Shown piece after piece: positions 2,690-64,000 of a stretch of DNA of 64,000 nucleotides; positions within the stretch are counted from its first letter, which is position 1; each line of letters opens with the position of its first letter. Where the stretch lies: IMG/VR virus record IMGVR_UViG_3300045988_076381. One strand, written 5' to 3'. A program made the translations under genes and the position numbers. Origin of the DNA: a virus. Under the pieces are notes generated by a model, which searched no databases, was not told the origin of the DNA, and was given only the letters and a program-made list of their open reading frames with translations.

Positions 2690-2751
2690 TTATAGCGGAT
2701 TCTGTCTAAAGATAACAGAACGATAGGGTGCGTATACTGATACGCCGCTGT
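2690..2751 (-). CDS. putative major capsid protein, exon 7 of 7
   Basis: Starts after terminal G2752 of intron F. T3088+AC gives Tyr, then SGVSVYAPYRSVIFRQNPL, TAA TAA. Confidence 0.6.
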
Positions 2752-3087
2752 CATTTATATTTAAATAAGATCGTTACTCTTATTCGAGCGTTTGCTCCAC
2801 TATGTCGCCATAGTGATTAGACTATATCTTTAACTTAAACACTGTTACCATATTTAAGTTACTCTCCATTTCCGATAGACTTCTATCGTACTCTACTCAT
2901 TTACTTGTTATAGGATTTCTCTATAACTACACTTTCGATAGTCGTTGAACTTTATATACTACTAAATGTGATTTAGTGTATATCTTAGCTGCTGATTGTC
3001 TAAGATAGAGTTTCCAGCAATTAGAAGAGTTGTTTTCTCTAATATCGCTACTAAAGGGGGTCTAAGCTTTAAAATTTTCAGATATCA
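2752..3087 (-). mobile_element. group I intron F (ORF-less, IA-like core)
   Basis: P1 GGGGUU/GACCCC with U3088.G3062. Plus-strand copies of P at 3012-3022, Q at 2988-2997, R (tagtcgttgaac) at 2939-2950, S at 2819-2828. Two P9-type hairpins. Ends at G2752. Confidence 0.75.
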
Positions 3088-3116
3088 AACCCCAGTAAAT
3101 CATTTTCTTGAGCCTC
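3088..3116 (-). CDS. putative major capsid protein, exon 6 of 7 (29-nt micro-exon)
   Basis: G AGG CUC AAG AAA AUG AUU UAC UGG GGU U. This is the only frame that connects exon 5 (phase 2) to exon 7 (phase 1). Confidence 0.55.
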
Positions 3117-3411
3117 CTGATCATTTTTGATCAAGAATCTTCATATTTCCATGAAGAACAGACTATATTATCACTTTTAAAAGTGTCTCCTCTTTCGAAC
3201 TTATTTAAGTTCTATGCCTATTTAATAGGACTTACTAGTCGTTGAACCTTTTTCTTTATTTAAAGAAACTTGGCTGCGGATTGTCTAATATTTAACCTTG
3301 TTACTATACCGAAGTAGTTACCTTCGCCATATAATTATTGCTAATTATATTTAGTAGTTAAATCTCTAAAGATGTTCCCGCAATTTAGGAGATTAGGATC
3401 CAAAATGATTC
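3117..3411 (-). mobile_element. group I intron E (ORF-less)
   Basis: P1 GGAUCU/GGAUCC with U3412.G3401. P AAUUGCGGGAA (3375-3385) and Q AAUCCGCAGC (3273-3282) covary relative to the other five introns. R at 3236-3247, S at 3160-3168. Ends at G3117. Confidence 0.75.
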
Positions 3412-3472
3412 AGATCCTGCAACTGGTGTGCTAGCGGTTCCTCCTGAGATACCGTCGATCCCGCCTCAAAGG
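3412..3472 (-). CDS. putative major capsid protein, exon 5 of 7 (61 nt)
   Basis: Only one of three frames is open: (S)FEAGSTVSQEEPLAHQLQD(L). Flanked by terminal G3473 and the P1 of intron E. Confidence 0.6.
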
Positions 3473-4809
3473 CTATTTTCTTATATTTTCATATAAGTTA
3501 GACTATATCATTAACTTGTTATAAGTTTATTCAATATATTTAAACACAAACCCTTTACAATGTGAAGCAGTTCCTTTAAGAACCTTGCTAACATTAGCAT
3601 ATTGTTTTCTACATTCCCTAACAGTATCAAATGTTTCTAATAGATTTCCTTCAAAATCATATCTTCCTACTTTTCTTTTTTTACATGGATTGAAATTTTT
3701 GGGAATTTCTAATTTATCTACTTTCTCCCAAGACCAAAAGTATCCACCATAACTTTGATTTAGATTTATAGCATTAGATAATCTATTTTGTTTTAAATTA
3801 CAAAATTCCTTAGCTTCTTTAGAATTTTTAAAACTACGTAAAAAATTACCTTCTAAATCATACTGATAGATAGGGTCATTACTTCTTTTTCTTTCTTGAG
3901 ATTTTATTGGATAAACATCAAATTTTCTATCGGAAATATAATATTTAGATATTTTAGTTCCTAATTTTACAGCTTTCTGTATTGAACTAAGATTAACATC
4001 TAAGTATCTAGCTGTATCAGACATAGATTTAAATTCCATGAAAAATACTCCTTTAGAAGTATATAAATAAGTTGATTTCTTTTGTAAAATAGGTTTGTTA
4101 GACAGATCTAGTTTATCAACTTTTATATCAGACCAATAAAATTCTCCACTCATACTTCCATTCAATACTGCACGCCCAATTGCAGCTTCATGAATATGAA
4201 TATGATCAGATGCCTCTTTAATACTATTAAAAGATCGTAAATAGTTTCCGGATAAAGAATACTGGTATATAATTTTATTTAATAATGGAGGAGTATCTCC
4301 GCCTAATGTAATATTATATGTATCAGATCTTCCAATGAAATTTTCATTTACTAAAAATCTTTCAATATTTTCTGCTTCTTCTCTTGTATTACATATAAAT
4401 AATGTAACTCTAGAGAAAGCATCAAATCCGTATTTCTTAACAGCACTCTGAAAAGGAGTTTTTGGATGTAATATACTAGATGGTTTATATATATTTACCC
4501 CATTTCCCAAATATCCATCAAATTTATCAGGATTCTCTGTTTCGTGTATTCCAATATAAATTTTTCTGTTTTTATTATTTATCGTTAGGTATACTATAGT
4601 TTTCATATATTGTGTTTTTACTTATACATTAAGTTATTTCCCATTTCGGAAGTAGAACTTCCTACGTCTATCCAGACTAGTCGTTGAACCCAATTTTGGA
4701 GTTTACATAAGTCTTACATATCCCAAAACCTTGGCTGCTGATTAGCATGTAATATTTATATTATTTAGCTTTCCAGCAATTAGAGAAATTTATTTTTCTG
4801 CATATCACT
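3473..4809 (-). mobile_element. group I intron D carrying a GIY-YIG gene
   Basis: P at 4771-4781, Q at 4734-4743, R at 4678-4689, then ORF 3527..4606, S at 3500-3509, GNRA-capped hairpin. Ends at G3473. Confidence 0.75.
3527..4606 (-). CDS. GIY-YIG homing endonuclease (intron-encoded)
   Basis: N-terminal IVYLTINNKNRKIYIGIHET...GYLGNG...EAENIERFLV (GIY-YIG core). C-terminal repeats YQYxLxGNxLRSFxSxKEA are typical DNA-binding modules of I-TevI/Seg-like enzymes. Paralog of 6465..7547. Confidence 0.8.
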   Translation of the reverse strand: MKTIVYLTINNKNRKIYIGIHETENPDKFDGYLGNGVNIYKPSSILHPKTPFQSAVKKYGFDAFSRVTLFICNTREEAENIERFLVNENFIGRSDTYNITLGGDTPPLLNKIIYQYSLSGNYLRSFNSIKEASDHIHIHEAAIGRAVLNGSMSGEFYWSDIKVDKLDLSNKPILQKKSTYLYTSKGVFFMEFKSMSDTARYLDVNLSSIQKAVKLGTKISKYYISDRKFDVYPIKSQERKRSNDPIYQYDLEGNFLRSFKNSKEAKEFCNLKQNRLSNAINLNQSYGGYFWSWEKVDKLEIPKNFNPCKKRKVGRYDFEGNLLETFDTVRECRKQYANVSKVLKGTASHCKGFVFKYIE

Positions 4810-5328
4810 ATGCAGCGGCGCAAGCGGATCTATTTACGCCAATTACATCAGTTTTAATCATATCACAGCCCTTGAACGTCCAAGATTCAATAGCTGGTTT
4901 TCCGTTAGCTAAGTCCGGAGTTAAGTCAAGAATAAATCCAAATGCTTGATCAGGATATTCTATATTTAAAGCTTTATCCGGCATAAAAGTAATCGTATTA
5001 CCCTGATATTCATAGCTAACAAAAGTATTACCTACTTTAACACCATCAACCGTTTCACCTACTTTCTTCTTCATACCAGAAGATTTACTATACATCAAAG
5101 TAGCAGTAGGAGTCCACCTTCCAATTTCATCCATTAAGTTATCACCAACCTGATTCCAAAGTAAAGAGTTACAGATTAATACGTAATCATTACCAGTTAA
5201 ATTCTTTGCCTTAGAGGTTAAGAAACTTAATGCTTCTTTGAAGTGTGAAGTAAGTAATTGATCGAAAGAGATTAAGTATGCATATCTTTCAATTTGAGGA
5301 ATTATCATTTGTGTTAGCTTTATGTTAC
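4810..5328 (-). CDS. putative major capsid protein, exon 4 of 7
   Basis: Track ORF 4808..5308 extended 5' to the splice acceptor. Ends at T4810 (phase 1), which is required by the only open frame of exon 5. Confidence 0.7.
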
Positions 5329-5514
5329 CATAAAGATCAGACTATATCTTAATCTTATATATTTAATTATTAAGATCCCCTCCATTTCGAGAAATTTTTC
5401 TCTACTCCATATTGGATAGTCGTTGAACGTTTCTTATAAAAGACTTCGCTGCTGATTGTCTTTATATTTAAAGATGTTCCAGCAATTAGAAGGGTGTTTC
5501 AGTATTTATCACTA
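5329..5514 (-). mobile_element. group I intron C (ORF-less, only about 186 nt)
   Basis: P1 UUUAUU/GAUAAA with U5515.G5510. P at 5477-5487, Q at 5448-5457, R at 5417-5428, S at 5339-5348. P7 GACUAU/AUAGUC. Extra hairpins between P7 and P3' (IA hallmark). Ends at G5329. Confidence 0.7.
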
Positions 5515-5542
5515 AATAAAGCGGCAAATTTCTTACCGTCGC
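5515..5542 (-). CDS. putative major capsid protein, exon 3 of 7 (28-nt micro-exon)
   Basis: GCG ACG GUA AGA AAU UUG CCG CUU UAU U between terminal G5543 and the P1 of intron C. Least certain exon. Confidence 0.5.
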
Positions 5543-5849
5543 CTATATACACTATTTATACTTTATATCACTATAAAGATTAGACTATATCATCAACTTA
5601 TCTTGTAACAATTATTTTTATTTAATTATTTAAGTTGTTCCCTGCTTCCATATATAAATATGTACGTCCGAAGACTAGTCGTTGAACTTTCATTAAATAT
5701 GATATAAATATATACAATATTTAATGCTTAGCTGCTGATTGCCTTTAAGTAGCAGATTAAAGATATTCCAGCAATTCAAGGAATTTAATTTATCATACTG
5801 TTTCCAGTATGCGACCCATGTTTAACATAGACGTTTGTTAAAATTTCCC
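5543..5849 (-). mobile_element. group I intron B (ORF-less)
   Basis: P1 GACCU/GGGUC with U5850.G5817. P2 CAUACUG-GAAA-CAGUAUG. P at 5766-5776, Q at 5731-5740, R at 5676-5687, S at 5582-5591. Ends at G5543. Confidence 0.75.
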
Positions 5850-6431
5850 AGGTCTCTGCGTTTGCGAATCAATTATAGTCGGTTTTCCGTTCTTATCCAC
5901 ATTACTACGTGCCCAAAGATCATGTTTAGCTTTAACTTCCAAGAAATTCTCAATCAAGGTCTTTTCCATTGAAGTCATAGTAAACAATTTCTCACTTCCC
6001 TTAGTTTCTGTATCACTAATTTTCAAGAATACATCTTCATTAGCTAAATAGGCTTGAGATGCATCAATATCATTTCTATGTAAGGTTAAGTAGTTACGAT
6101 GAACCTCCATATTAGACTGATATTTAGTCGTTCCAAAGTCGTGATAATCAAACGGATGAGCATTTGATAAGAAGTGAGTAGTCATACCAGGTTGACACGC
6201 AGAAGTATCAAGATACGACATATAATCAGTATCGATTAATCGAACAGTGTATTCATAATATTTATTACTTCTCCAAATTGGACGAGCAGTAACATAACAC
6301 TGTTGATGTGATTTATCTATCACGAAAATATCATGTTTATCGTAGTATTTTTCTTTAAACAACATCCGAATTTCAGTTCCTCCAACACCATCGCCTTCTG
6401 GAACAGCAACAAACGGAATACGTTTAATGAA
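5850..6431 (-). CDS. putative major capsid protein, exon 2 of 7
   Basis: Track ORF 5838..6365 extended upstream in frame (FIKRIPFVAVPEGDGVGGTEIR-MLFKEK...) to the acceptor. 582 nt = 194 codons. Confidence 0.7.
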
Positions 6432-7701
6432 CCTATTCTATTTAAAGAACTTAGACTATATCATTTACTTATTAGTATGATATTTAAAGATATAATCTTT
6501 ATAATATCTATCCCCCATCTGGATATTCTTTAATTTATTTGATGGGATATTGTATTTTTCTCTTACTTCTTTTATAGTATTTAAAGTCTCTATATAATTC
6601 CCAAATTTATCATACACATCAATTATCATTCCATTAGAATAACATTTTTGTGGAACTTTAGATACTTCTGTAGTAGATATGTAATAATCCTTATACCATC
6701 CCTCGTTATAAGATAATATATTCTGAATTTTAGCCCATGAATGAAGATTTATAACCTTCATTACTTCTTTCCCTTTAAATCTTCCTATATAATTTCCTTC
6801 TTTATCATATACATAATAAATAAGATTCTTACAACTTATCCTAGCCTTCGGAATAAATTCATCTACTAACTTCTTAGATATATAATATTGATTCTGTACT
6901 AGAGACTGATTTTTAATAGCTTTACTTATATCTAATATTCCTATATATTCAGCACATTCCTTTTCTGATTGAAACTCATTTAAGAGCTTCCCTTTTTTAG
7001 AATATAAATATACAGAAATAGGTGGATTAGATTTCTTACAATATTTAATAACATCTATCTCTGGTTCTAATGCCCAATAAGAATTAAGAAATTCACATTT
7101 CTTATCTATAGCATATTGAAATTTTTTAGGAGATTGTCCGTAAAAATCAAATACTTCTAAAGAATATTCCCATTTCTTTTGTAACTCTCCAGATGTATTA
7201 AATTGATAAATTGTTTTATATAAATCTGTATTTAAATAATTATAAGTATGATCCGCTTTTAAATACTCAGTATTTATTAACTCAGATTCTTTATTATACG
7301 CCTCTTCTAGAGTATCATAAATATATAAAGTAGTTCTCTCAAATGCTTTTGTTCCATACTTTTTAACAGCATATTGAAATGGAGTTTTTGGGTACATATA
7401 AGTACTTGGTTGATCTATATAAACTCCACACCCTAAATATCCATCAAAAGTATTAGGATCATTTGTCTGATGCACTCCAATATAAATTTTATTTAACTCT
7501 CCAACTTTAGATTTTAAATTTTTAGTAAGATATACAATATATTTCATAAGTAATTCAGTTTTTTAATCTTATTTAAATAATAAGATTTACAGGTTTCCCC
7601 TAGTCGTTGAACACTGTCTTCATCAAGACCATGCTGCTGATTATCTCTAGTAGCAGTAGAGAGTTCCCAGCAATTTAAAGAATTTATTGTGAACCTCATT
7701 G
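6432..7701 (-). mobile_element. group I intron A carrying a GIY-YIG gene
   Basis: P1 GUGAAU/GUUCAC with U7702.G7694. P at 7664-7675, Q at 7633-7642, R at 7601-7612, ORF 6465..7547, S at 6453-6462. Ends at G6432. Confidence 0.8.
6465..7547 (-). CDS. GIY-YIG homing endonuclease (intron-encoded)
   Basis: IVYLTKNLKSKVGELNKIYIGVHQT...GYLGCG...EAYNKESELI plus repeated C-terminal DNA-binding modules. Paralog of 3527..4606. Confidence 0.8.
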   Translation of the reverse strand: MKYIVYLTKNLKSKVGELNKIYIGVHQTNDPNTFDGYLGCGVYIDQPSTYMYPKTPFQYAVKKYGTKAFERTTLYIYDTLEEAYNKESELINTEYLKADHTYNYLNTDLYKTIYQFNTSGELQKKWEYSLEVFDFYGQSPKKFQYAIDKKCEFLNSYWALEPEIDVIKYCKKSNPPISVYLYSKKGKLLNEFQSEKECAEYIGILDISKAIKNQSLVQNQYYISKKLVDEFIPKARISCKNLIYYVYDKEGNYIGRFKGKEVMKVINLHSWAKIQNILSYNEGWYKDYYISTTEVSKVPQKCYSNGMIIDVYDKFGNYIETLNTIKEVREKYNIPSNKLKNIQMGDRYYKDYIFKYHTNK

Positions 7702-7941
7702 ATTCACATCCACGTCCCATTCGATAGCAAAAGCATCAATACTCTTACGTCCGGGCTTAGGAATATCTTGATAAACCATATTTTCAATTCTCTCAGTTAA
7801 AGCTGATACAGTATGTCCGGGACATAAAGATGCAGCTAAACCTACTCTATGAGTAATTCGTCCCAAGAATTGGGAGAAGTCATGAAAAGTTCTTGAGCCA
7901 TTCATATTGGCTCGATTTGAAATGTATTCTGCTACAAACAT
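7702..7941 (-). CDS. putative major capsid protein, exon 1 of 7
   Basis: ATG at 7941, 19 nt after the scaffold-like gene. 80 codons ending ...EWDVDVN at the P1 splice-site U. The capsid call rests on position after the scaffold and the 506-aa spliced size. Confidence 0.7.
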
Positions 7942-7959
7942 TTTAAATTAAATTTAGAT

Positions 7960-9027
7960 CTAATCCTTTAGGTTAAGAAAACTTTTTAAATCTGAATTTT
8001 CTATTTTATTACCTTTACCTGTTGATAGATTAGATGTGTTATTACTACGTTTTTTATTTTTAAGTTTACTTAATTTCTCTAGTCTATTCTTTAGGTACTC
8101 TTCATCGTTAAGTACATTATTATAATGTTCATGAATAGCTTCAATTAGTTCGTCTCCATGAGTAGCATAAAATGCTAATTTAAATAATGTATCTGGATTA
8201 TCTAAATCACTTGCAAGTTTTGTCCTTCCCGTAATCTGGGGTTTAGTTATATAATCCATTGTACTATCTATATCTGATTCTTCAAGGTCAAAACCTCCAA
8301 TAGTCTTAATATTTTTTCCAGCCTCTCTAAGAGTACCTATTATCTTATTTAATTCTTCCTCAGATAACTGAGAGTCTTGTTCTTCTTTCTGTTTAGCTTC
8401 GGCAGATAATCTTTCTTCTTCTGCTTTATATATCTCACGTAATTTATTAACCTTTTTCTCAAAAGATTCAGAATTTTCTTTAGCTTTATTTACTTCATCA
8501 ACTAATTCATCTTCTGTTAAAATATCTCCGTAATTATTTTTTATATATAAAGCATATATATCCTCATCTGATAATTCATCTACCTTATAAACAGCTCCTT
8601 CATTTGCTAAATATTCCTCAATTCCTTTCTGTTTGTAATAATTTACTAAAGATTCGGAGTTAAGGTTATTTTCACGCATAAATGTAAGAAGATTTATCTC
8701 ATCATCGTCTAGGTTATAATCATCTTCTTCTAAATTAAGAAGTTCTATTTGTTCTTCTCTGCTTAACTCAGTAAATGGGACACTGTGAATTACTCCGGTT
8801 TCAGTATCCTCTATTTTTATATTATTAAAATCTATTCCTCTAGATTTAAGAACAGACTCTAATAAAGATTGTTCGTCTATAACAGGAGAAGTATTCTCCT
8901 CTGTATTAACTTCCTCTTGGGAAGTATCTTTTTTACCATCCACATTCTCCTCAGATGATTTTTGAGGAGTAGATTCTTCGTCTAATGAGTTGAAGATATC
9001 TAAATCATTTTCATATTCCATATACAA
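7960..9027 (-). CDS. putative scaffolding protein
   Basis: 355 aa, very acidic with long coiled-coil-like Glu/Lys stretches, immediately upstream of the capsid gene. Based on composition and position only. Confidence 0.45.
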   Translation of the reverse strand: MYMEYENDLDIFNSLDEESTPQKSSEENVDGKKDTSQEEVNTEENTSPVIDEQSLLESVLKSRGIDFNNIKIEDTETGVIHSVPFTELSREEQIELLNLEEDDYNLDDDEINLLTFMRENNLNSESLVNYYKQKGIEEYLANEGAVYKVDELSDEDIYALYIKNNYGDILTEDELVDEVNKAKENSESFEKKVNKLREIYKAEEERLSAEAKQKEEQDSQLSEEELNKIIGTLREAGKNIKTIGGFDLEESDIDSTMDYITKPQITGRTKLASDLDNPDTLFKLAFYATHGDELIEAIHEHYNNVLNDEEYLKNRLEKLSKLKNKKRSNNTSNLSTGKGNKIENSDLKSFLNLKD

Positions 9028-9033
9028 TATTTA

Positions 9034-9324
9034 TTACAGAAGTTCTATATATTCCCCAAACTCTGCTAAAGACTTCTTTCTAATATTAAAAGGAGTAGAG
9101 GAAATAGTTTCTTTAAGAGAATTTTTATATTTATCATCCAATTCAAATGATTCCGATTCTACATTCTCTTCTAAAATTTTCATAATCTCTAAATCTCTTT
9201 TAATTGTAGATAAAGTTAAAGCTTTTTGGCTCGGAACTTCATAACAAAATAACATTAAACTTACATAATTAGCCGGACGCTGTGCATCCACTTTAATGTC
9301 AATAGGCTTATTTTCAATAATCAT
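9034..9324 (-). CDS. hypothetical protein
   Basis: 96-aa ORF packed 6 nt upstream of the scaffold-like gene. Confidence 0.5.
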   Translation of the reverse strand: MIIENKPIDIKVDAQRPANYVSLMLFCYEVPSQKALTLSTIKRDLEIMKILEENVESESFELDDKYKNSLKETISSTPFNIRKKSLAEFGEYIELL

Positions 9325-9399
9325 AGTTCATTAATTTTTAGTTATTCATCCACAAAAGTAGATAATATTTGTATGTAATACAATAAATAAATAAAAATT

Positions 9400-10017
9400 T
9401 TATTTTTTAATTTTATACGATTGTATCTTTATCTTATCTTTAAAACAATCAGATGTTGCAGTAATTTTACTAATATAATGATTCCGGAATCCTATTGTAT
9501 TATATCCGAATTCTTTTCTTTTCCTAAAATTATACCAATATATAATATCTCTATAGTCTATTATAGTTATATTTATATCAAAATCTAAAGAATCTATAGT
9601 AAGATATAATTTCTCATTATTAATTTCTAGAGTTTCATGTAATGTAATACAATCAATAGATTTAATTATCGGAATACAAGTATCTTTTATTATTTCAATA
9701 TTATTTAATATAGTATCTCTAATTACTTTAGTTGTGTTTATATTAGCTTTAATTACATTGTCTAATTGTTTAATCTTTAAATCTTTTTTCTCTAATTCCG
9801 ATTTAAGTAAAGAATCCTTTGATAAAATTATTCTTTTAAATTGTTTCTCTGTTACGATATGTACTTGTTGAAGAGAATCTATTGTACATAATTCTGAGGT
9901 ATGAATATCTTTTAAATCTCTAATTTCTCTAGATTGTTTATCTACTAGTTTTATTAAATATATTAAGGATATGATAAAGATTCCTAATGTAATATATTTA
10001 ATTAGTATTGTTTTCAT
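9400..10017 (-). CDS. membrane-anchored protein (N-terminal TM helix)
   Basis: 205 aa. ITLGIFIISLIYLI hydrophobic N-terminus, then a coiled-coil-like region. Confidence 0.5.
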   Translation of the reverse strand: MKTILIKYITLGIFIISLIYLIKLVDKQSREIRDLKDIHTSELCTIDSLQQVHIVTEKQFKRIILSKDSLLKSELEKKDLKIKQLDNVIKANINTTKVIRDTILNNIEIIKDTCIPIIKSIDCITLHETLEINNEKLYLTIDSLDFDINITIIDYRDIIYWYNFRKRKEFGYNTIGFRNHYISKITATSDCFKDKIKIQSYKIKK

Positions 10018-10252
10018 TATTATTAGATTTATTTATATTCTTTCTCCATATAGATGTAATAGTGTCAGCCCCTAATAGAGTAGTACTACATATGAAGAGC
10101 ATATCTACTATTTCTGGGGATTCTATTACTTTTATTGTGCACCATATACATATAAATAAACAAACTATCCACCCAAAAAATCCACATACTCTCTTAGAAC
10201 TTAATCCTGAATGAGCTGTGAACATCTTAATAAAGAAATTATTACAGTTCAT
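9998..10252 (-). CDS. small two-TM membrane protein (holin-like)
   Basis: 84 aa with two hydrophobic helices (GFFGWIVCLFICIWCTI, MLFICSTTLLGA) and a charged C-terminus. Function inferred from topology only. Confidence 0.4.
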   Translation of the reverse strand: MNCNNFFIKMFTAHSGLSSKRVCGFFGWIVCLFICIWCTIKVIESPEIVDMLFICSTTLLGADTITSIWRKNINKSNNNENNTN

Positions 10253-10280
10253 TTTAGAATCTGATTATAATATTATATAC

Positions 10281-11590: not shown

Positions 11591-11905
11591 CTAAGTTTTA
11601 GTTCCGAATACTATCCAATCTATAGTTTTTGGATCTTTTCCTCCACTATACAATTCTATATATGTCTTTGTTACACCCATAACATTACAAGAATATCCAG
11701 CTTCATTATTTCCCCGAAATGAACATACAGCAGTTCTTGGTATATAATCTCCTTGTAACGATACTCTAGTTTCAGTATGTCCCTCACATAAAGTACTTCC
11801 TATCTCAAATACCAAAGGACCTAATGTCATGACTACATGACCTGGTCTAATTATATCATGTGTAGTCTCTAATATATTATCTAATTCCGTTATAAACTCC
11901 GCCAT
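11591..11905 (-). CDS. small receptor-binding-domain-like protein, paralog c
   Basis: MAEFITE... N-terminus, RGNNEAGY and GGKDPKTIDWIVFG motifs shared with 11943, 12224 and 12670. Resembles the C-terminal tip domain of tail fibres. Confidence 0.6.
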   Translation of the reverse strand: MAEFITELDNILETTHDIIRPGHVVMTLGPLVFEIGSTLCEGHTETRVSLQGDYIPRTAVCSFRGNNEAGYSCNVMGVTKTYIELYSGGKDPKTIDWIVFGTKT

Positions 11906-11942
11906 AATTGATTATTTACTGATAATCCTATTATTAAAAATG

Positions 11943-12221
11943 TTACAGTTTTATCATCTTTTCCCCCAGAGAAAATGTTACTCCTGTAGTATTTAAACTA
12001 GATATACTTATAGCATATCCTTGTTCATCATTATTTTTTAATGAAGCCATTCCGGTAATTATCCCACTAAATCCTTTTAATGGTACAGAAACAACATCAT
12101 ACCCAGGACAAGTAGTAGTTCCATAAGCGATTCGTAGTCCTTTATAATTTATATATGTAACAGGATCTACCATTTCCACGGAATAGTCCTCTAAATTATC
12201 TTCTGTTAAAAATTCAGCCAT
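11943..12221 (-). CDS. small receptor-binding-domain-like protein, paralog b (C-terminus displaced to -1 frame)
   Basis: MAEFLTE..., LKNNDEQGY. The annotated frame ends ...SLGEKMIKL*, but the family motif GGKDDKTVTFLIIG is encoded in the -1 frame from the G5A4 run (11963-11967) to the stop at 11890. Confidence 0.55.
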   Translation of the reverse strand: MAEFLTEDNLEDYSVEMVDPVTYINYKGLRIAYGTTTCPGYDVVSVPLKGFSGIITGMASLKNNDEQGYAISISSLNTTGVTFSLGEKMIKL

Positions 12222-12223
12222 AT

Positions 12224-12517
12224 TTAATCACTTTCTCCTATTATTAAATAATAAAATTCTTTAGGATCTTTCCCTCCGAGTATGAAAATAGCCGAGGTAT
12301 TAGTATAAGAGGATAAATTTACTGTATAACCTGCTTCATTATTATTTTTTAAACAACAGAATACTCCATATACTGATTTAAATCCGGAATAAGTAATTGT
12401 TATACCTCTACTAGTTATAGAAGAATATCCTCCAACCATTCTGAGTCCTAAACCTTCAATCCCTCCAGATCCAGTAGAATCTAAAGCTCTATCGTCTACA
12501 GTTAGATATTCTGCCAT
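12224..12517 (-). CDS. small receptor-binding-domain-like protein, paralog a
   Basis: MAEYLTV..., LKNNNEAGY, GGKDPKEFYYLIIG. Confidence 0.6.
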   Translation of the reverse strand: MAEYLTVDDRALDSTGSGGIEGLGLRMVGGYSSITSRGITITYSGFKSVYGVFCCLKNNNEAGYTVNLSSYTNTSAIFILGGKDPKEFYYLIIGESD

Positions 12518-12518
12518 A

Positions 12519-12659
12519 TTATATTATTTTAGCTCTTTGTTTTAATCGATGTACATCATCTTCTAAAGATTGGATTTTGTCTTTTATTATATTTAATTCT
12601 AAGGAATCTTTTTTAATAAAGATTCTATGTAAAAATGTTTTAATTTTATTTAGTAACAT
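12519..12659 (-). CDS. short coiled-coil ORF (46 aa)
   Basis: ATG at 12659, MLLNKIKTFLHRIF...LEDDVHRLKQRAKII. Its stop overlaps the ATG of 12517. Below the track's size cutoff. Confidence 0.3.
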   Translation of the reverse strand: MLLNKIKTFLHRIFIKKDSLELNIIKDKIQSLEDDVHRLKQRAKII

Positions 12660-12669
12660 ATTAATTTAA

Positions 12670-46594: not shown

Positions 46595-46664
46595 TTCTTA
46601 GTAGTTTAACTGGTGAAAATGTCATATACAGTAGGAAATATTAGTTCGAATCCAATCTAAGAAG
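46595..46664 (+). ncRNA. tRNA-like element with unpaired anticodon arm (pseudo-tRNA?)
   Basis: Acceptor TTCTTAG/CTAAGAA, U8-A9, D arm GTTT-AACTGGTGA-AAAT, T arm ATTAG-TTCGAAT-CCAAT. No 5-bp anticodon stem can be drawn in 46621-46639. Confidence 0.35.
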
Positions 46665-54434: not shown

Positions 54435-54435
54435 A

Positions 54436-57413: not shown

Positions 57414-57638
57414 ATGTGGATAGCGAGAGAAGAAAATGATGATTTATATTTATTTAGATATAAACCTTATAAATCTGTACGTCATTGGGTTGCTGATGAA
57501 CAAGATCCGTCTAAATATCGTTTTAGAATAGATAGAGAATTATTCCCAGAAATTACTTTTTATAATAGTCCCAAAGAAGTTATTCTTCAGCTTAAGGAGA
57601 AAATAACTAAAGTATCAATATTAAACCAGACTATATGA
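57414..57638 (+). CDS. hypothetical protein
   Basis: 74-aa ORF. Confidence 0.5.
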   Translation: MWIAREENDDLYLFRYKPYKSVRHWVADEQDPSKYRFRIDRELFPEITFYNSPKEVILQLKEKITKVSILNQTI

Positions 57639-58222
57639 GAAAAATAGGAATATTCTTAGGAAACTTTGATCCTCCTACTATATGTCATCAAAATATAATT
57701 AGGAATATTGTAAATTATAATTTCTTAGATGAAATCTTTATTGTTCCTAAATATAGAAGTGTTAAAGAATCATATTCCACACTTTTTACAGATAGAGTAA
57801 CTATGTGTAAGAGAGCGTTTAAACCATTTAAAAAGGTTACTATATCTAATATGGAAAGTTTAATAGCTTCTACAGATATGAAAACCTATAGAGAAGGGGT
57901 TCCATCTTGGAAGACTATTGAATTCTTTAAGAATATAAAAGATATTGAATTATATATAATAACTACATTCCCTGGATATTCCAAAATTCCTAATTGGGAT
58001 AAGGGTGAGGAGATATTAAAGGATAATAAATTTATTGTTCTTTGTGAAACTAAAGATTTAGGGAAATTATCTGAAGATATTATTAGTATACCTTTATATG
58101 ATCATATCAATATTACATCTAATAAAATTCGGAATTATATAAGATTAGATTCTAATCCGTTTCCCTTAGTTCAGAAAGATGTACTTGATTATATTTACAA
58201 ACATAATCTTTATATAGGATGA
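57635..58222 (+). CDS. NadD-like nicotinate/nicotinamide mononucleotide adenylyltransferase
   Basis: IGIFLGNFDPPTICHQ (GxFxPxHxGH-type motif with Cys-His), ITSNKIRNYI (ISSTxIR-like), VLDYIYKHNLY (V..YI...LY). Confidence 0.7.
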   Translation: MRKIGIFLGNFDPPTICHQNIIRNIVNYNFLDEIFIVPKYRSVKESYSTLFTDRVTMCKRAFKPFKKVTISNMESLIASTDMKTYREGVPSWKTIEFFKNIKDIELYIITTFPGYSKIPNWDKGEEILKDNKFIVLCETKDLGKLSEDIISIPLYDHINITSNKIRNYIRLDSNPFPLVQKDVLDYIYKHNLYIG

Positions 58223-58598: not shown

Positions 58599-59008
58599 AT
58601 GAATAGAAAAGAAAGAACTATCTCCGAAAATATGGAGAAATTAATGATAGACCAAATCTCAAGAGAATTATATAATCATAATGTATATAGAACATATGCG
58701 AATTACTATTATGTAAGAGGATTGTTTAAATTACATCTTTATTATGAGATGAGATCTAACGAGGAATATAATCATCATCAATGGATTGTTGATAGATTAT
58801 ATAGAGCCGGAGTTGATTTTAATTATCCAGAAGTACCAGCTATTAAATCTAATCATGTTATATTAAAGCCAGAAGATAGTTTTCAGAAAGTAGTAGATTT
58901 AGAGATTGAAACTACTATGTATATAAATAAAATGATAGAAACTGCGAAAGAGGAGAAGGATTGGCAGACGGAGGGATGGTTAAAGAGGACGTTAAATGAA
59001 GAGCAGAT
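58599..59008 (+). CDS. ferritin-like protein, exon 1 of 2
   Basis: ELYNHNVYRTYANYY, NEEYNHHQWIVDRL and DLEIETTMYINKMIE follow the ferritin helix A-C ligand pattern. Exon ends ...LNEEQ + AU at the P1 splice-site U59008. Confidence 0.7.
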
Positions 59009-60177
59009 AAACTTTTGTCTGAAAGTATGGTAACATACAGGTGAATAGATCAAAATCGATGAAGTCTAATTTAGATAATATCGAGGTAAGTATGAATTTA
59101 AAGGATTCATACCACTGTAACGCGTAGGTGTTGAAACTATTAATTATTTATAAATTATATTTTTGCAGAAGAGATAATTGTTTTTATCGTGGAAGAATAT
59201 TAACTTTGTATTTATTACATTTTAATATTTAAATTCTTATGGATAAAAACAGAAAACTAGAATTTGAGGGAAAGATATTTCCTACGAATAATTGTGGCGA
59301 GCTAAAAATCATCGAATATAATGGAGCAACTAATGTAGTGGTGGAGTTTATTACTACTAAAACTATACATTCTACCACTATGAATAACATCAAGAAAGGA
59401 TCAGTATCCGATCCTATGTATCCAACAGTATATGGAATAGGATATATGGGTATAGGAGAGTATAAAAGTAGGACTGGGACTAGTCCTCAAACAACTTGCT
59501 ATAAACGATGGAAAGAAATTCTTAATCGATGCTATAATCCTAAATGTTCTGCTTATAAATTTTATGGAGGAAATGGAGCAATTATATGTGAAGAATGGAA
59601 AAATTTCCAAAATTTTGCATCTTGGTGGTATTCTAACTTTCCAAATTGGGAAGGAATTAAAATTGCTATAGATAAAGATTTATTATGTAAGGGAAATAAG
59701 GAATATTGTCCTGAATACTGCTGCTTTTTACCTCAAGAAATAAACGAAGCTCTTACTTTAAGAAAAAAGGAAAGAGGGGATTATCCAGTTGGAGTACGGT
59801 TAAAAGAAGGAAAAATTATTGCTCAAATTAATTACATGGGAAATAAAAAACATTTAGGAACATTTTCCACTGTTGAAGATGCTTTTGCAAAATATAAAAT
59901 AGAAAAGGAAAAGTGTATGAAAGAATATGCTGATAAATACAAAAATATACTTTCGGAGAGAGTGTATCAAGCATTATATAACTACACTATAAATATAGAT
60001 GATTAATAGAATAAAATATACCCAAGAGTGATCTACTCCTACAGGTAATGCTGAGGATGAAAATGTACGCTGAACCGTCTGATGATTAAATCAGAATATC
60101 TTTATTTACATCTTCAATAAAGTAAGGAGGAGACTCCCGGAAGTAAGAGATAAAAAACTCTTACGATAACAAAATTG
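59009..60177 (+). mobile_element. group I-like intron (terminase-intron family) carrying an AP2-domain gene
   Basis: P1 CAGAU/GUCUG with U59008.G59017. P2 GUAUG-GUAA-CAUAC. P3 UAGAUCA/UGAUCUA. J3/4 AAA. P4 UCGAUG/UAUCGA. 3' end GAUAACAAAAUUG like intron T2. Ends at G60177. Confidence 0.65.
59239..60006 (+). CDS. AP2-domain homing-endonuclease-like protein (intron-encoded)
   Basis: VGVRLKEGKIIAQINYMGNKKHLGTFSTVEDAFAKYKIEKEK is an AP2/ERF-type DNA-binding domain, common in phage HNH/AP2 homing endonucleases. I did not identify a catalytic motif. Confidence 0.6.
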   Translation: MDKNRKLEFEGKIFPTNNCGELKIIEYNGATNVVVEFITTKTIHSTTMNNIKKGSVSDPMYPTVYGIGYMGIGEYKSRTGTSPQTTCYKRWKEILNRCYNPKCSAYKFYGGNGAIICEEWKNFQNFASWWYSNFPNWEGIKIAIDKDLLCKGNKEYCPEYCCFLPQEINEALTLRKKERGDYPVGVRLKEGKIIAQINYMGNKKHLGTFSTVEDAFAKYKIEKEKCMKEYADKYKNILSERVYQALYNYTINIDD

Positions 60178-60340
60178 GGAAGAAGAAGATGTTAGCCGAA
60201 TAATCCTAACAATGTCTGAGGAAGATACTGACTGGCAGACTAAGGAAGATACTATTCTATCATATTATAATGGATTGAATAGAGTAATAGAAGGAGATAG
60301 AGATATTATTGACAATAACTCTTTTCTTAAACAAAGATAA
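60178..60340 (+). CDS. ferritin-like protein, exon 2 of 2
   Basis: AU+G then GAA GAA GAA... gives EEQ-MEEEDVSRIILTM, which parallels E. coli FtnA SEQ-HEEEKLFKSIIDKL. Stops TAA TAA at 60338-60343. Confidence 0.6.
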
Positions 60341-60359: not shown

Positions 60360-61004
60360 ATGTTAGTTCTAGATAATATTAATTCAGTCTCGGATGTAAT
60401 TACAAATTCCTCATCGGAATTATTTGTAATAAACGATAAAAATACTACATTAGACCATCTTAAGAATATAATCAATCCTATATTAGATGGTTATTATGAA
60501 CCATTTGTATTTAATTTAGATACGTTTAGAAAATGGGTAGAAAGTTCCGAAGAGGATAATTCTACGGATATAGACGCATGTTTTCAGACTATATACGACT
60601 GGTTCATTGATTTAGAGTGTCCTAGTGGTTTAACTTACTATATTAGGGATACTCTTTATAAGTTACGGTTAGAGGACTATATTAAATTAGAAAATAGTCT
60701 ACTTAAAGAATTATACGCGGAATTAATTAAAAAGTATGATACTAATTATTCCTCATATAAAGAAATTGAAGCTTTTCTTCAAACATATGATGAAGACAAA
60801 ATAAACAAAATCATAGACTATTTGCTAAATACAAATTTCGAATATGACATTCGAAAATTAAATGGAAAGATTATTCTCCTTTCCGAGGAGGAGAATTCCA
60901 TTTCATGTAGTAGAAAATTTAACCGCTCAGAATTTGCGGAAGATTCTGATGTATTTCAATGGCTTGAGCATAATTTTAATATTACATATTATCATTTAGG
61001 ATGA
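60360..61004 (+). CDS. TNSSSE-motif protein, paralog 1
   Basis: N-terminal INSVSDVITNSSSELFVI, shared with the next two genes. Confidence 0.55.
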   Translation: MLVLDNINSVSDVITNSSSELFVINDKNTTLDHLKNIINPILDGYYEPFVFNLDTFRKWVESSEEDNSTDIDACFQTIYDWFIDLECPSGLTYYIRDTLYKLRLEDYIKLENSLLKELYAELIKKYDTNYSSYKEIEAFLQTYDEDKINKIIDYLLNTNFEYDIRKLNGKIILLSEEENSISCSRKFNRSEFAEDSDVFQWLEHNFNITYYHLG

Positions 61005-61426
61005 GATTTAAAATACATTCAATATCAGATATTATAACAAACAGTAGTTCAGAAGTATTTCTTGTTTCTAAAGATAGTGAGATAAAGAATATAAAAGGAT
61101 TGCAAGAGAAACTGAATTTAGGAGACGTATCTGATTTACTAAAGTTTATACATACTTATAGTTGGGGTATAGATAAAGACTATAATTATGGAGATTTATG
61201 TATAACACTTGATCATATACGTGATATAACTAATGCTTTCAGTAACTACTTCAATGATAGTGACTGGGATGATAATATCTCAAAAATAGGTATATTACGT
61301 GATGAGATGTACAAAGTATTTGCTGAGAGTTTTAAAGATATAGTAGCTATAGTAATAGATAATGGCTATTATTATGAATTTATTGCAAATAATCCAAATT
61401 TAAAATATGAAAACTTTCCATATTAA
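61001..61426 (+). CDS. TNSSSE-motif protein, paralog 2
   Basis: IHSISDIITNSSSEVFLV. Overlaps both neighbours. Confidence 0.55.
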   Translation: MRFKIHSISDIITNSSSEVFLVSKDSEIKNIKGLQEKLNLGDVSDLLKFIHTYSWGIDKDYNYGDLCITLDHIRDITNAFSNYFNDSDWDDNISKIGILRDEMYKVFAESFKDIVAIVIDNGYYYEFIANNPNLKYENFPY

Positions 61427-61715
61427 AATTCATTCTATTTCAGATATTATTACTAATAGTAGTTCCGAGACCTTTTGTTTTATTTATAGTGAAGATATAT
61501 CTAAAGTATTAAAAGTATTATCTCCTTATTTTGGGAACTATGATGTTTTTGATGAATGTTGTGCACAAATATATGGTCCTTTTCAAGAAGGTATAGAGGA
61601 TCCTTATATTGAAATTAGATGTTCCGAAGATTATAGACCTTCGTTACTAGAAGAAGGATTAAGATATGTATTAGATAAAAATAATATTGATTATACAATA
61701 TCAAAAGAAGAATAA
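61407..61715 (+). CDS. TNSSSE-motif protein, paralog 3 (N-terminal part?)
   Basis: IHSISDIITNSSSETFCF. Only 102 aa versus 214 for paralog 1. Confidence 0.55.
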   Translation: MKTFHIKIHSISDIITNSSSETFCFIYSEDISKVLKVLSPYFGNYDVFDECCAQIYGPFQEGIEDPYIEIRCSEDYRPSLLEEGLRYVLDKNNIDYTISKEE

Positions 61716-61999: not shown

Positions 62000-62007
62000 A
62001 TTAAGAG

Positions 62008-62475
62008 ATGAAAGATTTTAAACACTTTGGAGTTAGGTTTAAAGGTATAAGTAGTTGTAATTATACCGCAATATGGAGTAATTTAATTACAATACGTCTT
62101 GGAGATAAAGAGATTAAAGAACTTCCAGCAGATAAAGCTGAGTTTTATGACGTTTCATTAGGAGATAAATGTGTTACTGGGAAATGTAATTTCTGCTTAG
62201 TACCAGAAACACATATACTTACTAATGAGGGTGATAAATATATAACAGACATAAAAACAGAAGACTTAGTGTTTTCTTACAATGAGTGTAGTGGAGATAT
62301 TGAGTTAAAAAAAGTAGACCAAGTATTTGAAAGAGTATATGAAGGAGAACTTATTGAAGTGGTTACAGAAATCGGAACTTTAAGACTGACTCCGAATCAT
62401 AAAATATATACTAGAAATAGAGGATGGATTGCAGCGTGTAATCTACAAGTGTCAGACGAATTGTTAGAATTTTAA
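62008..62475 (+). CDS. radical-SAM-like protein N-fragment fused to split-intein N-part
   Basis: Extein ...GDKCVTGKCNF, then CLVPETHILT (block A) ... LRLTPNHKIYT (block B) ... ELLEF*, about 93 aa of Hint N-half ending in a stop. Confidence 0.7.
   Translation: MKDFKHFGVRFKGISSCNYTAIWSNLITIRLGDKEIKELPADKAEFYDVSLGDKCVTGKCNFCLVPETHILTNEGDKYITDIKTEDLVFSYNECSGDIELKKVDQVFERVYEGELIEVVTEIGTLRLTPNHKIYTRNRGWIAACNLQVSDELLEF
62194..62472 (+). mobile_element. split intein, N-fragment (IntN)
   Basis: Starts at Cys63 (TGC 62194). Size and blocks A/B are comparable to DnaE-type IntN (about 100 aa). Confidence 0.65.
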
Positions 62476-62547
62476 TATCCGAAAAGTTGGAAGTATTAAA
62501 ATAGATTATTATTTTTGTATATAAAATAATAACTAATTTTAATACTT

Positions 62548-63669
62548 ATGAAAACATGTAAATATTGTGGATGTGATATATCCCACCTAAGAGCTAATGC
62601 TACCACTTGTGGATCGAGAGAATGTATAAATGCGTATAGAAGAGAACGTAAATCCAAACCTAAGGAGCCAAGAACTTGCGAAATTTGTGGAACGTCTATA
62701 GACGATCTTCCTGGACAAAGGAGAATTTGTAAAAATCCAGAATGTGAAGCGGAGCAAAAAAGAAGAAAATATGCACAGGCCTTAAAAGAAAAAATATGTA
62801 AAAAATGTGGAGATACTTTCCTTGGCACTTCTAAACAAACCTGTTGTGAAAACTGTAGAAAACATAAAGATATAACATTTAAAGTTATAGAACAGAAAGT
62901 AGTTTGTGAAGATTGTGGAGCCTTACTAAGGACCGAAAGTAAAAAAGTTAATGGAAAAACTAAGGAGATTATAGCAAAAGGAATGTGTGATGATTGTAAA
63001 CAAAAACATAGAGAGAAACTTAGTTTACAAATGAAAGAACATAATCCTATGTTTGATCCTGAGATAGTTAAAAAAACTTCGGAGACAAGACGATATAAGT
63101 ATCTACAAAAATGTGAAGAAGAAGAAAGGCTTCCTTATGTAAGAAAAGGATGTAAAGGTGAAACTAGGGAAGAAATGATTCAAAGAATGAAAGAACACAA
63201 TCCTATGTTTGATCCTGAAACTAGAGCAAAGGTCAGCAAAACTCTTAAAGAAAAAATTTTATCTGGAGAAATTATTTATGCTAAAGGTCCAGAACATCAT
63301 TTGTGGAAAGGTAATAGAAATTTTAATAAGGCAGTACGTATAGAATTAAGAAAATGGGTTAAAGAACAAATGGAAAAGGTTCATTATATATGCCAAAAAT
63401 GTGGGAAAACACGCACCGAATTACATGTACACCATTTACATCCATTAAGGGATATAATTTTGGATACTTTAAATAAAAATAATTTAACTATCATAGATAT
63501 AAATAGTATGGAGGGTTCAGAACAATATTTTGATATAATTAAACAAATAATTGAATATCATTATCAACATAATGATATCGGAATTGTTGTTTGTCCCCAA
63601 TGTCATAATGAACTAGATAGTTATTATAAAAGAAAAACTCATGAAAATAGTAAGTATAAAGAAAGTTAA
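62548..63669 (+). CDS. HNH homing endonuclease with zinc ribbons and NUMOD3-like repeats
   Basis: Four CxxC...CxxC ribbons, two KEHNPMFDPE repeats, C-terminal ELHVHHLHP...N...CPQCHNELD. Lies between the two intein halves. Confidence 0.75.
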   Translation: MKTCKYCGCDISHLRANATTCGSRECINAYRRERKSKPKEPRTCEICGTSIDDLPGQRRICKNPECEAEQKRRKYAQALKEKICKKCGDTFLGTSKQTCCENCRKHKDITFKVIEQKVVCEDCGALLRTESKKVNGKTKEIIAKGMCDDCKQKHREKLSLQMKEHNPMFDPEIVKKTSETRRYKYLQKCEEEERLPYVRKGCKGETREEMIQRMKEHNPMFDPETRAKVSKTLKEKILSGEIIYAKGPEHHLWKGNRNFNKAVRIELRKWVKEQMEKVHYICQKCGKTRTELHVHHLHPLRDIILDTLNKNNLTIIDINSMEGSEQYFDIIKQIIEYHYQHNDIGIVVCPQCHNELDSYYKRKTHENSKYKES

Positions 63670-64000
63670 TTATAATGGAAAGGTATATAATATTGGAGTG
63701 AGAGATAATAATAATTATTTTGCATCTAATATTTTAGTACATAACTGCTATGTATCTTCTAATCCAAATGGGGAGTATTATACTAATGTATGTGAAACAT
63801 GGAAGAAGTTTATTGCTACATTTGCTCCAGATAAGAAAGAAAAGAATATCACTATCACAGAAAAACCCTTTCAAATAGCGATTGGATCTGAAGGCTCTGC
63901 GGACGAGTCGCCGGAGTTCTGTGATTTCTTGGAAACTGTATATAATACTGGAGTAGTTCCTAATTATACTACTAACGGAGTAATTCTATCATATTATGAT
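63641..64000 (+). CDS. split-intein C-part (35 aa) fused to radical-SAM-like C-fragment (runs off window)
   Basis: ATG at 63641 (overlaps the HNH end): MKIVSIKKVNYNGKVYNIGVRDNNNYFASNILVHN|CYVSSNPNG.... HN-Cys+1 at 63740-63748. Not in the ORF track because no stop lies in the window. Confidence 0.65.
   Translation, partial: MKIVSIKKVNYNGKVYNIGVRDNNNYFASNILVHNCYVSSNPNGEYYTNVCETWKKFIATFAPDKKEKNITITEKPFQIAIGSEGSADESPEFCDFLETVYNTGVVPNYTTNGVILSYYD

Follow-up and report, generated by a model that had tools for sequence, protein, structure and literature searches.

How can a virus build its particle when the gene for its major capsid protein lies in seven separate pieces, and what are the insertions that hold the pieces apart? 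The question is raised by the IMG/VR virus record IMGVR_UViG_3300045988_076381, of which a stretch of 64,000 nucleotides (nt) was analysed; this whole stretch is referred to here as the window. Capsid, terminase, ferritin-like, exonuclease and Cys-motif protein genes are all interrupted in it. The reading that we regard as very probable is that these five genes have been invaded by ten group I introns, belonging to two families, and by two inteins, and that removal of these elements would be needed for production of the proteins. With the same high confidence we take the window to be about 64 kilobases (kb) of the genome of a crAss-like (Crassvirales-related, putatively Zeta-type) gut phage. 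An original prediction had proposed ten group I introns, one contiguous intein and one split intein, and all twelve were found, at or near where they had been placed, in genes with collinear homologues.

The evidence lies in the exons and in the intron borders. Once its insertions are taken out, each of the interrupted genes (capsid, terminase, ferritin, exonuclease and Cys-motif gene) is collinear with an uninterrupted homologue. All ten introns are preceded by U at position −1 and have a guide that pairs through U·G, and nine of the ten end in G. Together they amount to 5820 nt of intron RNA, with the capsid and terminase genes accounting for 4651 nt; the earlier figure of about 5.3 kb for the late operon gives way to 4.65 kb in these two late genes, or to 5.82 kb with the ferritin gene included. 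Homologue mapping and RNA-family profiles uphold the proposed distribution of six introns in the capsid gene, three in the terminase gene and one in the ferritin gene, in two families. As had also been proposed, four capsid introns and the three terminase introns, seven in all, are without an open reading frame (ORF).

The capsid gene is laid out as follows; bit scores refer to the Rfam group I model RF00028, which has a gathering score of 50 bits.

2690-7941, minus strand: major capsid protein gene (PHROG major head protein; homologues carry PF23898)
7941-7702, 6431-5850, 5552-5535 (18 nt), 5305-4836, 3466-3412 (55 nt), 3106-3088 (19 nt) and 2751-2690, minus strand: capsid exons
6432-7701, minus strand: intron I1, 1270 nt, predicted td-like group I, carrying the endonuclease ORF 6465-7547
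5553-5849, minus strand: intron I2, 297 nt, no ORF (RF00028, 77 bits)
5306-5534, minus strand: intron I3, 229 nt, no ORF (RF00028, 107 bits)
3467-4835, minus strand: intron I4, 1369 nt, carrying the endonuclease ORF 3527-4606
3107-3411, minus strand: intron I5, 305 nt, no ORF (RF00028, 66 bits, the match overrunning exon 5; nhmmer match 3410-3122)
2752-3087, minus strand: intron I6, 336 nt, no ORF (RF00028, 88 bits)

The exon map derives from an uninterrupted capsid homologue of 482 amino acids (aa; P0001, 67% identical), which was retrieved by a database search with the concatenated ORF pieces and is collinear in tblastn with seven minus-strand pieces of the window. The tblastn search was run at E<=1000, where most matches are noise, and the map uses only the seven collinear high-scoring segment pairs. 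Junctions were placed so as to preserve the frame, with U as the last base of the exon and G as that of the intron. The spliced coding sequence of 1446 nt is in frame and specifies 481 aa, and two of its exons are micro-exons of only 18 and 19 nt. Removal of the introns restores a frame collinear with intron-less alleles, and the I6 junction gives back KMIYWG-Y-SG, the same as in P0001.

The introns themselves share a td-type core, with the blocks AATTGCTGGAA, AATCAGCAGC, GTTCAACGACTA and GATATAGTC aligned in all six; the blocks that I1 has in common with the others read AATTGCTGGGAA, AATCAGCAGC, GTTCAACGACTA and GATATAGTC. A P9 hairpin follows the core blocks, and in five of the six its four-base loop is GUGA, GUAA, GAAA or GCGA. 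The guide pairs with its own 5′ exon through U·G in every capsid intron, and the last base is G in five of them. The P1 helices read UGUGAAU/GUUCACA with U·G in I1, GACCU/GGGUC with U·G in I2, UGGCGU/GCGCCG in I4, AGGAUCU/GGAUCCU in I5 and, by manual reading, GGGGUU/GACCCC with U·G in I6; I1, I4 and I5 end in G. I3, which has U at −1 and G as its last base, is missing from the related contigs L210, L211, L216 and L218. An Rfam scan, proposed along with the original prediction, places I2, I3, I5 and I6 above the gathering threshold (66-107 bits) and recovers I4 in two parts, 47 bits at 4610-4845 and 26 bits at 3480-3574, which flank its ORF and are both matched by nhmmer as well; I1 has no Rfam match, and the terminase and ferritin introns are silent. 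I1 is nevertheless matched at E 3.6e-28 by an nhmmer profile of the six capsid introns, which has no further match in the window. From these shared features we classify the six as putative T4 td-like (IA2-type) group I introns.

The terminase gene and the ferritin-like gene, which lie on opposite strands, are interrupted by members of a second family.

30054-33346, minus strand: terminase large subunit gene (PHROG terminase large subunit)
33346-32538, 32245-31819, 31534-30516 and 30246-30054, minus strand: terminase exons (tblastn of P0018)
32246-32537, minus strand: terminase intron A, 292 nt, no ORF, of a putative group I family to which Rfam is blind, between KGRGL and GFSEMG
31535-31818, minus strand: terminase intron B, 284 nt, no ORF, same RNA family as A, other sub-lineage
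30247-30515, minus strand: terminase intron C, 269 nt, no ORF, same RNA family as A
58599-60340, plus strand: ferritin-like gene, exons 58599-59008 and 60178-60340 (Pfam Ferritin 1.5e-16 on the spliced protein)
59009-60177, plus strand: ferritin intron, 1169 nt, ORF in the P7.1 loop, same RNA family as the terminase introns

An uninterrupted terminase homologue of 821 aa (P0018, 81% identical) maps to the four exons, which splice to a coding sequence of 2448 nt and 815 aa. Intron A is inserted at what we ourselves read as a Walker-A-like motif; it is preceded by U at −1 and its P1, read from the sequence, is GGGCU/GGCCU. In B and C, P1 is CCGGU/GCCGG and GGGGAU/GUCCCU, each with U·G, and all three introns end in G. 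Their mean column identity is 69%, and identical copies of C are present in contigs L003 and L017. A search of the 2.4-kb terminase region against Rfam gave no match to them even at E<=10, only chance matches (small nucleolar RNA, microRNA). Group II introns were rejected as an identity for these insertions, since a length of 269-292 nt is too small for them and both P1 and the final G are of group I type.

The ferritin intron belongs with them by profile: the terminase-type family profile (nhmmer) matches 59040-59140 and 60007-60088, on either side of the ORF at 59239-60006. Its P1 joins exon CAGAU to guide GUCUG with U·G, its last base is G, and P3 (UAGAUC/GAUCUA) and P7 (GCGUA/UACGC) were read from the sequence. 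The predicted junction EEQ|M|EEED is identical in the uninterrupted alleles L275-L277. A whole-window search with RF00028 found no match to this intron at the gathering threshold or at E<=1. Some alleles of relatives (L278-L292) lack the intron, and in others it measures about 320, 740 or 1170 nt; the same P7.1 hairpin occurs without an ORF in contig L100. The size classes suggest stepwise gain or decay of the endonuclease ORF. Just upstream of the ferritin-like gene sit two further plus-strand genes, for an RNase H (52819-53259; Pfam 1e-32) and a cytidylyltransferase-like (NMN adenylyltransferase-type) protein (57635-58222).

The sequences and minimum-free-energy predictions give the second family the fold order P1-P2-P3-P4-P5-P6-P7-P7.1-P3′-P8-P7′-P9-P9.1, which in this model is the group I order of subgroup IA. 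U·G at the 5′ splice site and a final G are present in all four terminase and ferritin introns, and the guides vary so as to complement their own 5′ exons. A core pattern from the three terminase copies was used to scan IMG/VR, where at least 120 contigs from many environments match it, with 110 distinct core sequences. P7 occurs in three covarying versions and is fully paired in 91 of 91 scorable sequences; the 5′ strand of P7.1 comes in 63 different versions, and 118 of 129 sequences have four paired positions in this helix; P3 is perfectly paired in 67% of sequences, compared to 13% in controls. Pairs were also counted in a MAFFT alignment of 73 diverse core sequences, which replaces an earlier family alignment that misplaced intron B in P4-P6, with 500 shuffles and a slid partner strand as controls. 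Paired cells make up 90.7% of this alignment, while the shuffled control reaches 67% and the slid-partner control 33-46%; both sides change at 29 of 38 pairs, and no shuffle of the 500 equals any observed measure. By helix, pairing is 86% in P3, 92% in P6, 100% in P7, 99% in P7.1, 93% in P8 and 95% in P9, and all six pairs of the long-range P3 helix covary. Separate pairing scripts agree with this count. The covariation thus supports a modelled group I fold with a P3/P7 pseudoknot, P4, P6, P7.1, P8 and P9.

Members of this family are not restricted to the lineage of the window. Related elements were found by blastn in Staphylococcus, Streptococcus, Clostridium/Clostridioides and Bacillus phages. 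In Bacillus phage vB_BsuS_PJN02 (NC_071050.1, positions 2585-9814, our locus L413) a family member lies between ORFs annotated as ‘exonuclease V’ and ‘Dda-like helicase’, which are probably the halves of one helicase gene; the intron itself is unannotated and adjoins ORFs annotated as ‘mobile intron protein’ and ‘endonuclease’. In a separate observation, the unrelated environmental viral contig IMGVR_UViG_3300025737_000034 (L080) holds both intron families within 4 kb (6646-6730 and 10210-10279), and their co-occurrence is therefore not confined to crAss-like phages. On the strength of the structural model we conclude that the terminase and ferritin introns form a group I sub-family outside the coverage of RF00028.

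The remaining two interrupted genes differ in that the insertions would be removed from the protein.

35041-37020, minus strand: PD-(D/E)XK exonuclease gene with intein (PHROG exonuclease; weak Pfam PDDEXK_1)
35365-36384, minus strand: contiguous intein, putative class 3 (WCT), 340 aa, residues 213-552, between DWK and T of the nuclease motif
62008-62475, plus strand: N-half of a fractured gene, 62-aa N-extein ending CX4CNF, then N-intein 62194-62472 (93 aa, blocks A and B) and stop
62548-63669, plus strand: HNH endonuclease gene between the intein halves, 373 aa (phrog_1271 HNH 3.5e-16; weak Pfam HNH)
63641-64000 (window end), plus strand: C-half of the fractured gene, own ATG, C-intein 63641-63745 (35 aa, ...ILVHN), then Cys-starting C-extein

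The contiguous intein is missing, as an exact segment, from 16 related loci, and 15 of the 16 intein-less alleles are 85-100% identical to the window. Alleles L227-L241 read VWDWK|TNKK, and the insertion is precise and in frame. Class 3 inteins (PMC2807308) were recognised by a non-nucleophilic residue 1, by Trp in block B, Cys in block F and Thr in block G, by Ser or Thr at +1 and by a C-terminal His-Asn. The window intein has Gly1, the stretches HEHRW, TQCIEV and PTHN, and then Thr; Gly1 is kept in a host allele that is only 56% identical (L226). Its splicing domain matches two solved class 3 DnaB inteins (6BS8, 6RIX; E 6e-20), with which the W, C and T residues line up, and by sequence the intein is assigned to class 3.

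The split intein is spread over three ORFs. The N-half matches Pfam PT-HINT and positions 2-92 of the Intein_splicing model, and residues 2-35 of the C-half correspond to Pfam Intein_splicing positions 122-155, with blocks F and G. The host gene, which in the uninterrupted allele of L243 reads ...GKCPWCYV..., runs unbroken across the junction in 16 relatives (93-97% identity) and in 10 more distant ones. Three contigs keep the three-ORF layout at 95-96% nucleotide identity, and the HNH ORF is intact in L260 and L261. A guess from its CX4CX2C motif that the host is radical-SAM-like found no support in Pfam or PHROG. Across the interrupted genes, the spliced products are predicted to contain the junction peptides RPVYIGDGIIPQ, VAGSKMIYWGYSGV, LKGRGLGFSEMG, VWDWKTNKK and GKCNFCYVSS.

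Besides the HNH gene of the split intein, endonuclease genes lie inside three introns and elsewhere in the window.

3527-4606, minus strand: intron I4 endonuclease, GIY-YIG-like with NUMOD1 repeats (Pfam NUMOD1 1e-21, I-HmuI NUMOD-like; PHROG homing endonuclease 6e-23)
6465-7547, minus strand: intron I1 endonuclease, paralogue of 3527-4606 (PHROG homing endonuclease 1e-11; NUMOD1)
59239-60006, plus strand: ferritin-intron endonuclease (PHROG HNH families: phrog_953 1e-60, phrog_2081 2e-47)
42800-43828, minus strand: free-standing endonuclease VII/HNH-like gene, outside any interrupted gene (phrog_3322/phrog_1035/phrog_3118, 1e-19 to 1e-14)
41093-41844, minus strand: T5orf172 (GIY-YIG-related) gene with frameshift (Pfam T5orf172/MUG113 on 41554-41844)

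The two capsid-intron ORFs are 37% identical to each other (E 9e-52). They had been called GIY-YIG endonucleases: their status as homing endonucleases stands, by PHROG and NUMOD1, while the GIY-YIG domain itself is a weak match in one of them. The AP2 type that had been assigned to the ferritin-intron ORF is not confirmed; this ORF has no Pfam match, AP2 is not found even at E<=10 on its isolated C-terminus, and PHROG places it in HNH families instead. Searches of PDB sequences with the three intron ORFs gave no match. The two HNH genes that had been named, at 62548-63669 and 42800-43828, are indeed HNH/endonuclease VII-like by PHROG, and the T5orf172 gene is frameshifted as described, with its EWF motif continuing in another frame that is open from 41674 to 41093 (194 aa). 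This last gene could be a pseudogene, a case of programmed frameshifting or an error.

Expression of the five genes can be envisaged as follows. In each intron the internal guide would pair with the last 4-7 exon bases to form P1, with U·G at the cut site, and the intron would leave by two guanosine-dependent transesterifications, restoring the reading frame exactly. The homing-endonuclease genes of three introns could copy these introns into intron-less alleles during co-infection, and the seven ORF-less introns are most likely reduced derivatives. The exonuclease would be restored at the protein level by the class 3 intein, in which the internal Cys of block F would act as first nucleophile. 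The Cys-motif protein would be restored by trans-splicing of two separately translated halves, from a split intein that was presumably broken by insertion of a free-standing HNH gene. We infer that all of the elements splice with good efficiency in vivo and that no virion can form without splicing. The count of at least nine splicing events per virion put forward in the original prediction agrees with nine for capsid and terminase, on the grounds that these genes are essential.

The identity of the phage was approached through its proteins. Window DNA is AT-rich (about 29% G+C), with late genes on the minus strand from about 1 to 44 kb and, beyond, other genes and a cluster of transfer RNA (tRNA) genes on the plus strand. 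Portal, terminase and capsid proteins match crAss-like PHROG families. The portal has 40-43% identity to unannotated human-gut phage contigs and about 20% to named crAss-like phages, and the terminase shares 28-30% of its residues with Crassvirales terminases. In a cluster of 57%-identical terminases, on contigs of 170-182 kb, one GenBank protein bears the name ‘Terminase large subunit [Crassvirales sp.]’. A megablast of 12 kb of the window against GenBank phages gave no match, with nothing close at the DNA level, and the lineage appears from these comparisons to be without near kin among cultured or deposited phages; in IMG/VR, dozens of close relatives are present, the longest of their contigs measuring 167 kb.

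Several points weigh against the reading of spliced introns and inteins in a Zeta-type phage. The reading is derived from sequence, and splicing is predicted. Neither the four terminase and ferritin introns nor 33 other family members have a group I match in Rfam 15 (E<=10 being used for the terminase region and for 13 of the 33, and permissive thresholds yielding chance matches only in these members too), and the group I assignment of the terminase and ferritin introns therefore rests on the structural model. At the borders of I2 a G is shared, so that either its last base is A with U at −1, or G stands at −1 with a final G. Pfam GIY-YIG is matched by ORF 3527-4606 only, at E 0.002 and 18.8 bits against a cut-off of 22.6, and the LAGLIDADG match in the middle part of the contiguous intein (LAGLIDADG_3 / Hom_end) also lies below the Pfam cut-off. 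The split-intein host (CX4CX2C) belongs to no family recognised by Pfam or PHROG. Finally, membership of the Zeta group is inferred from homology and from the sizes of relatives' contigs.

The silence of Rfam invites the view that the terminase and ferritin elements are a distinct, undescribed class of self-splicing (or host-assisted) RNA, group I-like in topology only, and the size and diversity of the family, with its at least 120 contigs, would suit such a class. We nevertheless judge this unlikely. The element order is that of subgroup IA and the P3/P7 pseudoknot is backed by covariation; all four copies combine U·G at the 5′ splice site with a final G; and the J6/7-P7 and J8/7-P7′ segments GUAACGCAUAG ... 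AAAAUAUAUGC parallel td-type UUCAACGACUA ... GAUAUAGUC. The PJN02 copy, in a split helicase gene beside a ‘mobile intron protein’ gene, points the same way, and it is already on record that RF00028 fails to detect those group I subgroups which its seed alignment does not represent (PMC11878797).

It is also improbable that some of the insertions, notably ORF-less ones such as I2, are decayed and no longer splice, in a defective or declining lineage with capsid or terminase pseudogenes. I2 cannot combine U at −1 with a last base G because the G is shared at both borders, a departure from the canonical pair of rules that suits decay, as does the frameshifted T5orf172 gene in the same window, and viability is not provable from metagenome assemblies. 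Yet every exon is open and in frame and shares 93-100% identity with its counterparts in many independent contigs, spliced products fit intron-less homologues throughout, including in internal length, and the conserved cores and examined paired elements are intact in every copy. The I2-bearing allele, with the same junction, recurs in related contigs such as L210 and L216 and is therefore not an assembly error; occupied alleles read CCT|G...A|GTG and intron-less ones CCC GTT (L204/L205/L213). For I2, a 3′ splice site after AUAGUG, which would delete one codon, is ruled out: intron-less alleles keep the Val codon, and the spliced capsid length fits homologues only if it is retained.

That the pile-up is an assembly artefact (an intron-plus/intron-minus strain chimera or mis-joined repeats) is scarcely credible. 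Repeated intron families do lie together on one contig, and strains that are related but differ in their introns share samples; but paralogues only 52-71% identical are too divergent for mis-assembly, the frame is exactly restored at every junction, contig 104602 independently has the identical intein allele, all three terminase introns and the same gene order, and gene order and individual insertions recur in independent IMG/VR contigs.

Splicing of mobile introns and inteins thus being the preferred reading, their distribution among relatives can be considered. The comparison with related phages proposed alongside the original prediction finds empty and occupied alleles, in close relatives, at every insertion site of the window. 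Relatives' terminase genes have zero to three introns, at the same three sites. Their capsid genes, with exons 93-100% identical, use at least eight sites, after residues 80, 180, 274, 280, 385, 437, 455 and 461. Of these, 180 and 385 carry no intron in the window and are filled among L203, L207, L208 and L212-L224, and L224 seems to have an intron at seven or all eight sites. Only a few relatives have the intein or the split intein. From this presence and absence across relatives the insertions are therefore read as mobile and polymorphic, and the window is no outlier within its lineage.

The source of the introns is a separate question, for which intragenomic spread had been proposed. Over the P3-P7 core, every capsid intron has a relative in another contig (75-87% identical) that is at least as close as its best paralogue in the window (70-77%). 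Terminase intron C is 74% identical to copies in L144 and L080, against 71% to A and 70% to B; intron B is closest to L175 (78%), L096 and L136, not to A or C; and the ferritin intron likewise belongs to a different sub-lineage, nearest to L193. Several introns are thus closer to copies in other phages than to their paralogues in the window, although the compared cores are short and conserved, which limits the resolution of such kinship. By these comparisons nothing favours duplication inside the genome over acquisition from a shared pool and homing between co-infecting relatives, and the presence of the same introns at the same sites in many related phages would fit homing in the population together with repeated uptake from a broad pool.

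Other features of the window stand apart from the interrupted genes. At about 42300-44100 the coding strand changes from minus to plus, cumulative GC skew is at its lowest, and a 497-nt gap (42303-42799) lacks any ORF of at least 80 aa; this may be an origin or a divergent promoter region. The tRNA cluster comprises two tRNA-Met genes and tRNAs for Cys, Asn, Leu(UAA) and Gln(UUG), and a seventh tRNA at 46595-46664 on the plus strand is found by Rfam (37.7 bits) but not listed by ARAGORN; no suppressor tRNA is present in the window. Two sets of tandem paralogous small genes, at 11591-13008 (minus strand) and 60360-61715 (plus strand), include four ORFs of about 92-112 aa with the start MAEF/MAEY/MAKEF...T.D, and three ORFs have the N-terminal motif S(I/V)SD(I/V)ITNSSSE in common. 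Large tail-fibre-like proteins of 794 and 1983 aa are encoded on the minus strand at 14079-16463 and 19721-25672, each with a terminal Peptidase_S74 intramolecular chaperone domain.

The load of selfish elements on essential phage genes is resolved here to the base, and amounts to six predicted ribozyme excisions for each capsid messenger RNA (mRNA) and three for each terminase mRNA. Gene callers will fragment genes interrupted in this way, counting introns by their endonucleases misses seven of the ten, and an entire family of phage introns escapes Rfam; a model of this family could be seeded with the 73-sequence alignment and its structure. The many intron-plus and intron-minus alleles of near-identical phages offer natural material for studying how homing proceeds in the gut virome. 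Three further readings, taken jointly, are possible but doubtful: that the Rfam-blind family is a widespread phage group I subclass without an Rfam 15 model, which may be undescribed; that, with most introns ORF-less, the numbers published so far (up to 14 per genome) may fall well short of the true load; and that the ordered splicing of up to eight ribozymes in one capsid mRNA could limit or time virion production.

How does the window compare with known systems? The novelty implied by the original prediction was overstated: group I introns and inteins in core genes were published in 2021 for Zeta-group crAss-like phages, in which introns were detected via endonuclease domains, with up to 14 per genome, and complete genomes measure 145-192 kb (Yutin et al. 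2021, PMC7886860); a paper of 2025 reports the same. An overload of self-splicing elements was thus already reported for this phage group, and current understanding is not overturned. The window resembles the Zeta group in being Crassvirales-related, from the human gut and interrupted in its core genes, with relatives' contigs mostly of 80-167 kb. It differs from the Zeta study in that the seven ORF-less introns would be invisible to endonuclease-based detection, in that the capsid gene has seven exons, two of 18-19 nt, with at least eight sites used among relatives, and in that splice junctions, RNA families and empty alleles are base-resolved. The added value lies in the ORF-less majority, the two micro-exons, the capsid hotspot of at least eight sites, the Rfam-invisible family and the putative class 3 intein in a nuclease motif.

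The td, nrdB and nrdD introns of T4 and those of Twort orf142 are IA2 group I introns with ORFs in peripheral loops and GIY-YIG-type endonucleases, and Twort orf142 also has several introns in one gene. The capsid introns of the window share the td-type core (RF00028) with these; six introns in one structural gene contrast with one to three, in a nucleotide-metabolism host gene, in T4 and Twort. A further comparison is with the Bastillevirinae, phages of Bacillus whose terminase large-subunit genes are split by two or three group I introns, with phrog_2081-type endonucleases inside introns and splicing shown by cDNA sequencing; these introns fall outside the classical IA2 definition and are only partially detected by Rfam (PMC11878797). 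The window belongs to another phage order and host phylum, and its splicing is only predicted.

For the split intein, the arrangement of N-extein and N-intein, endonuclease ORF, and C-intein and C-extein is identical to that of loci described mainly in phages by Dassa et al. 2009 (PMC2677866). The endonuclease is HNH, whereas half of the published loci have one of a Vsr-like family, and the host is an uncharacterised CX4CX2C protein that is not among the eight DNA synthesis and repair enzymes reported there. The contiguous intein shares Gly1, the W/C/T residues and Thr at +1 with the class 3 DnaB inteins of mycobacteriophage Bethlehem and of M. smegmatis and M. chimaera (6BS8, 6RIX), but whereas those interrupt the P-loop of a helicase-like ATPase, this one is inserted into the (D/E)xK motif of a PD-(D/E)XK nuclease. 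A further difference is the candidate LAGLIDADG domain that it carries. The mitochondrial cox1 gene of fungi offers a parallel outside phages, since it is an essential gene with many group I introns, very short exons and presence/absence polymorphism between strains, and its splicing is often maturase-dependent. The window differs from cox1 in that the genome under this burden is that of a virus and not of an organelle.

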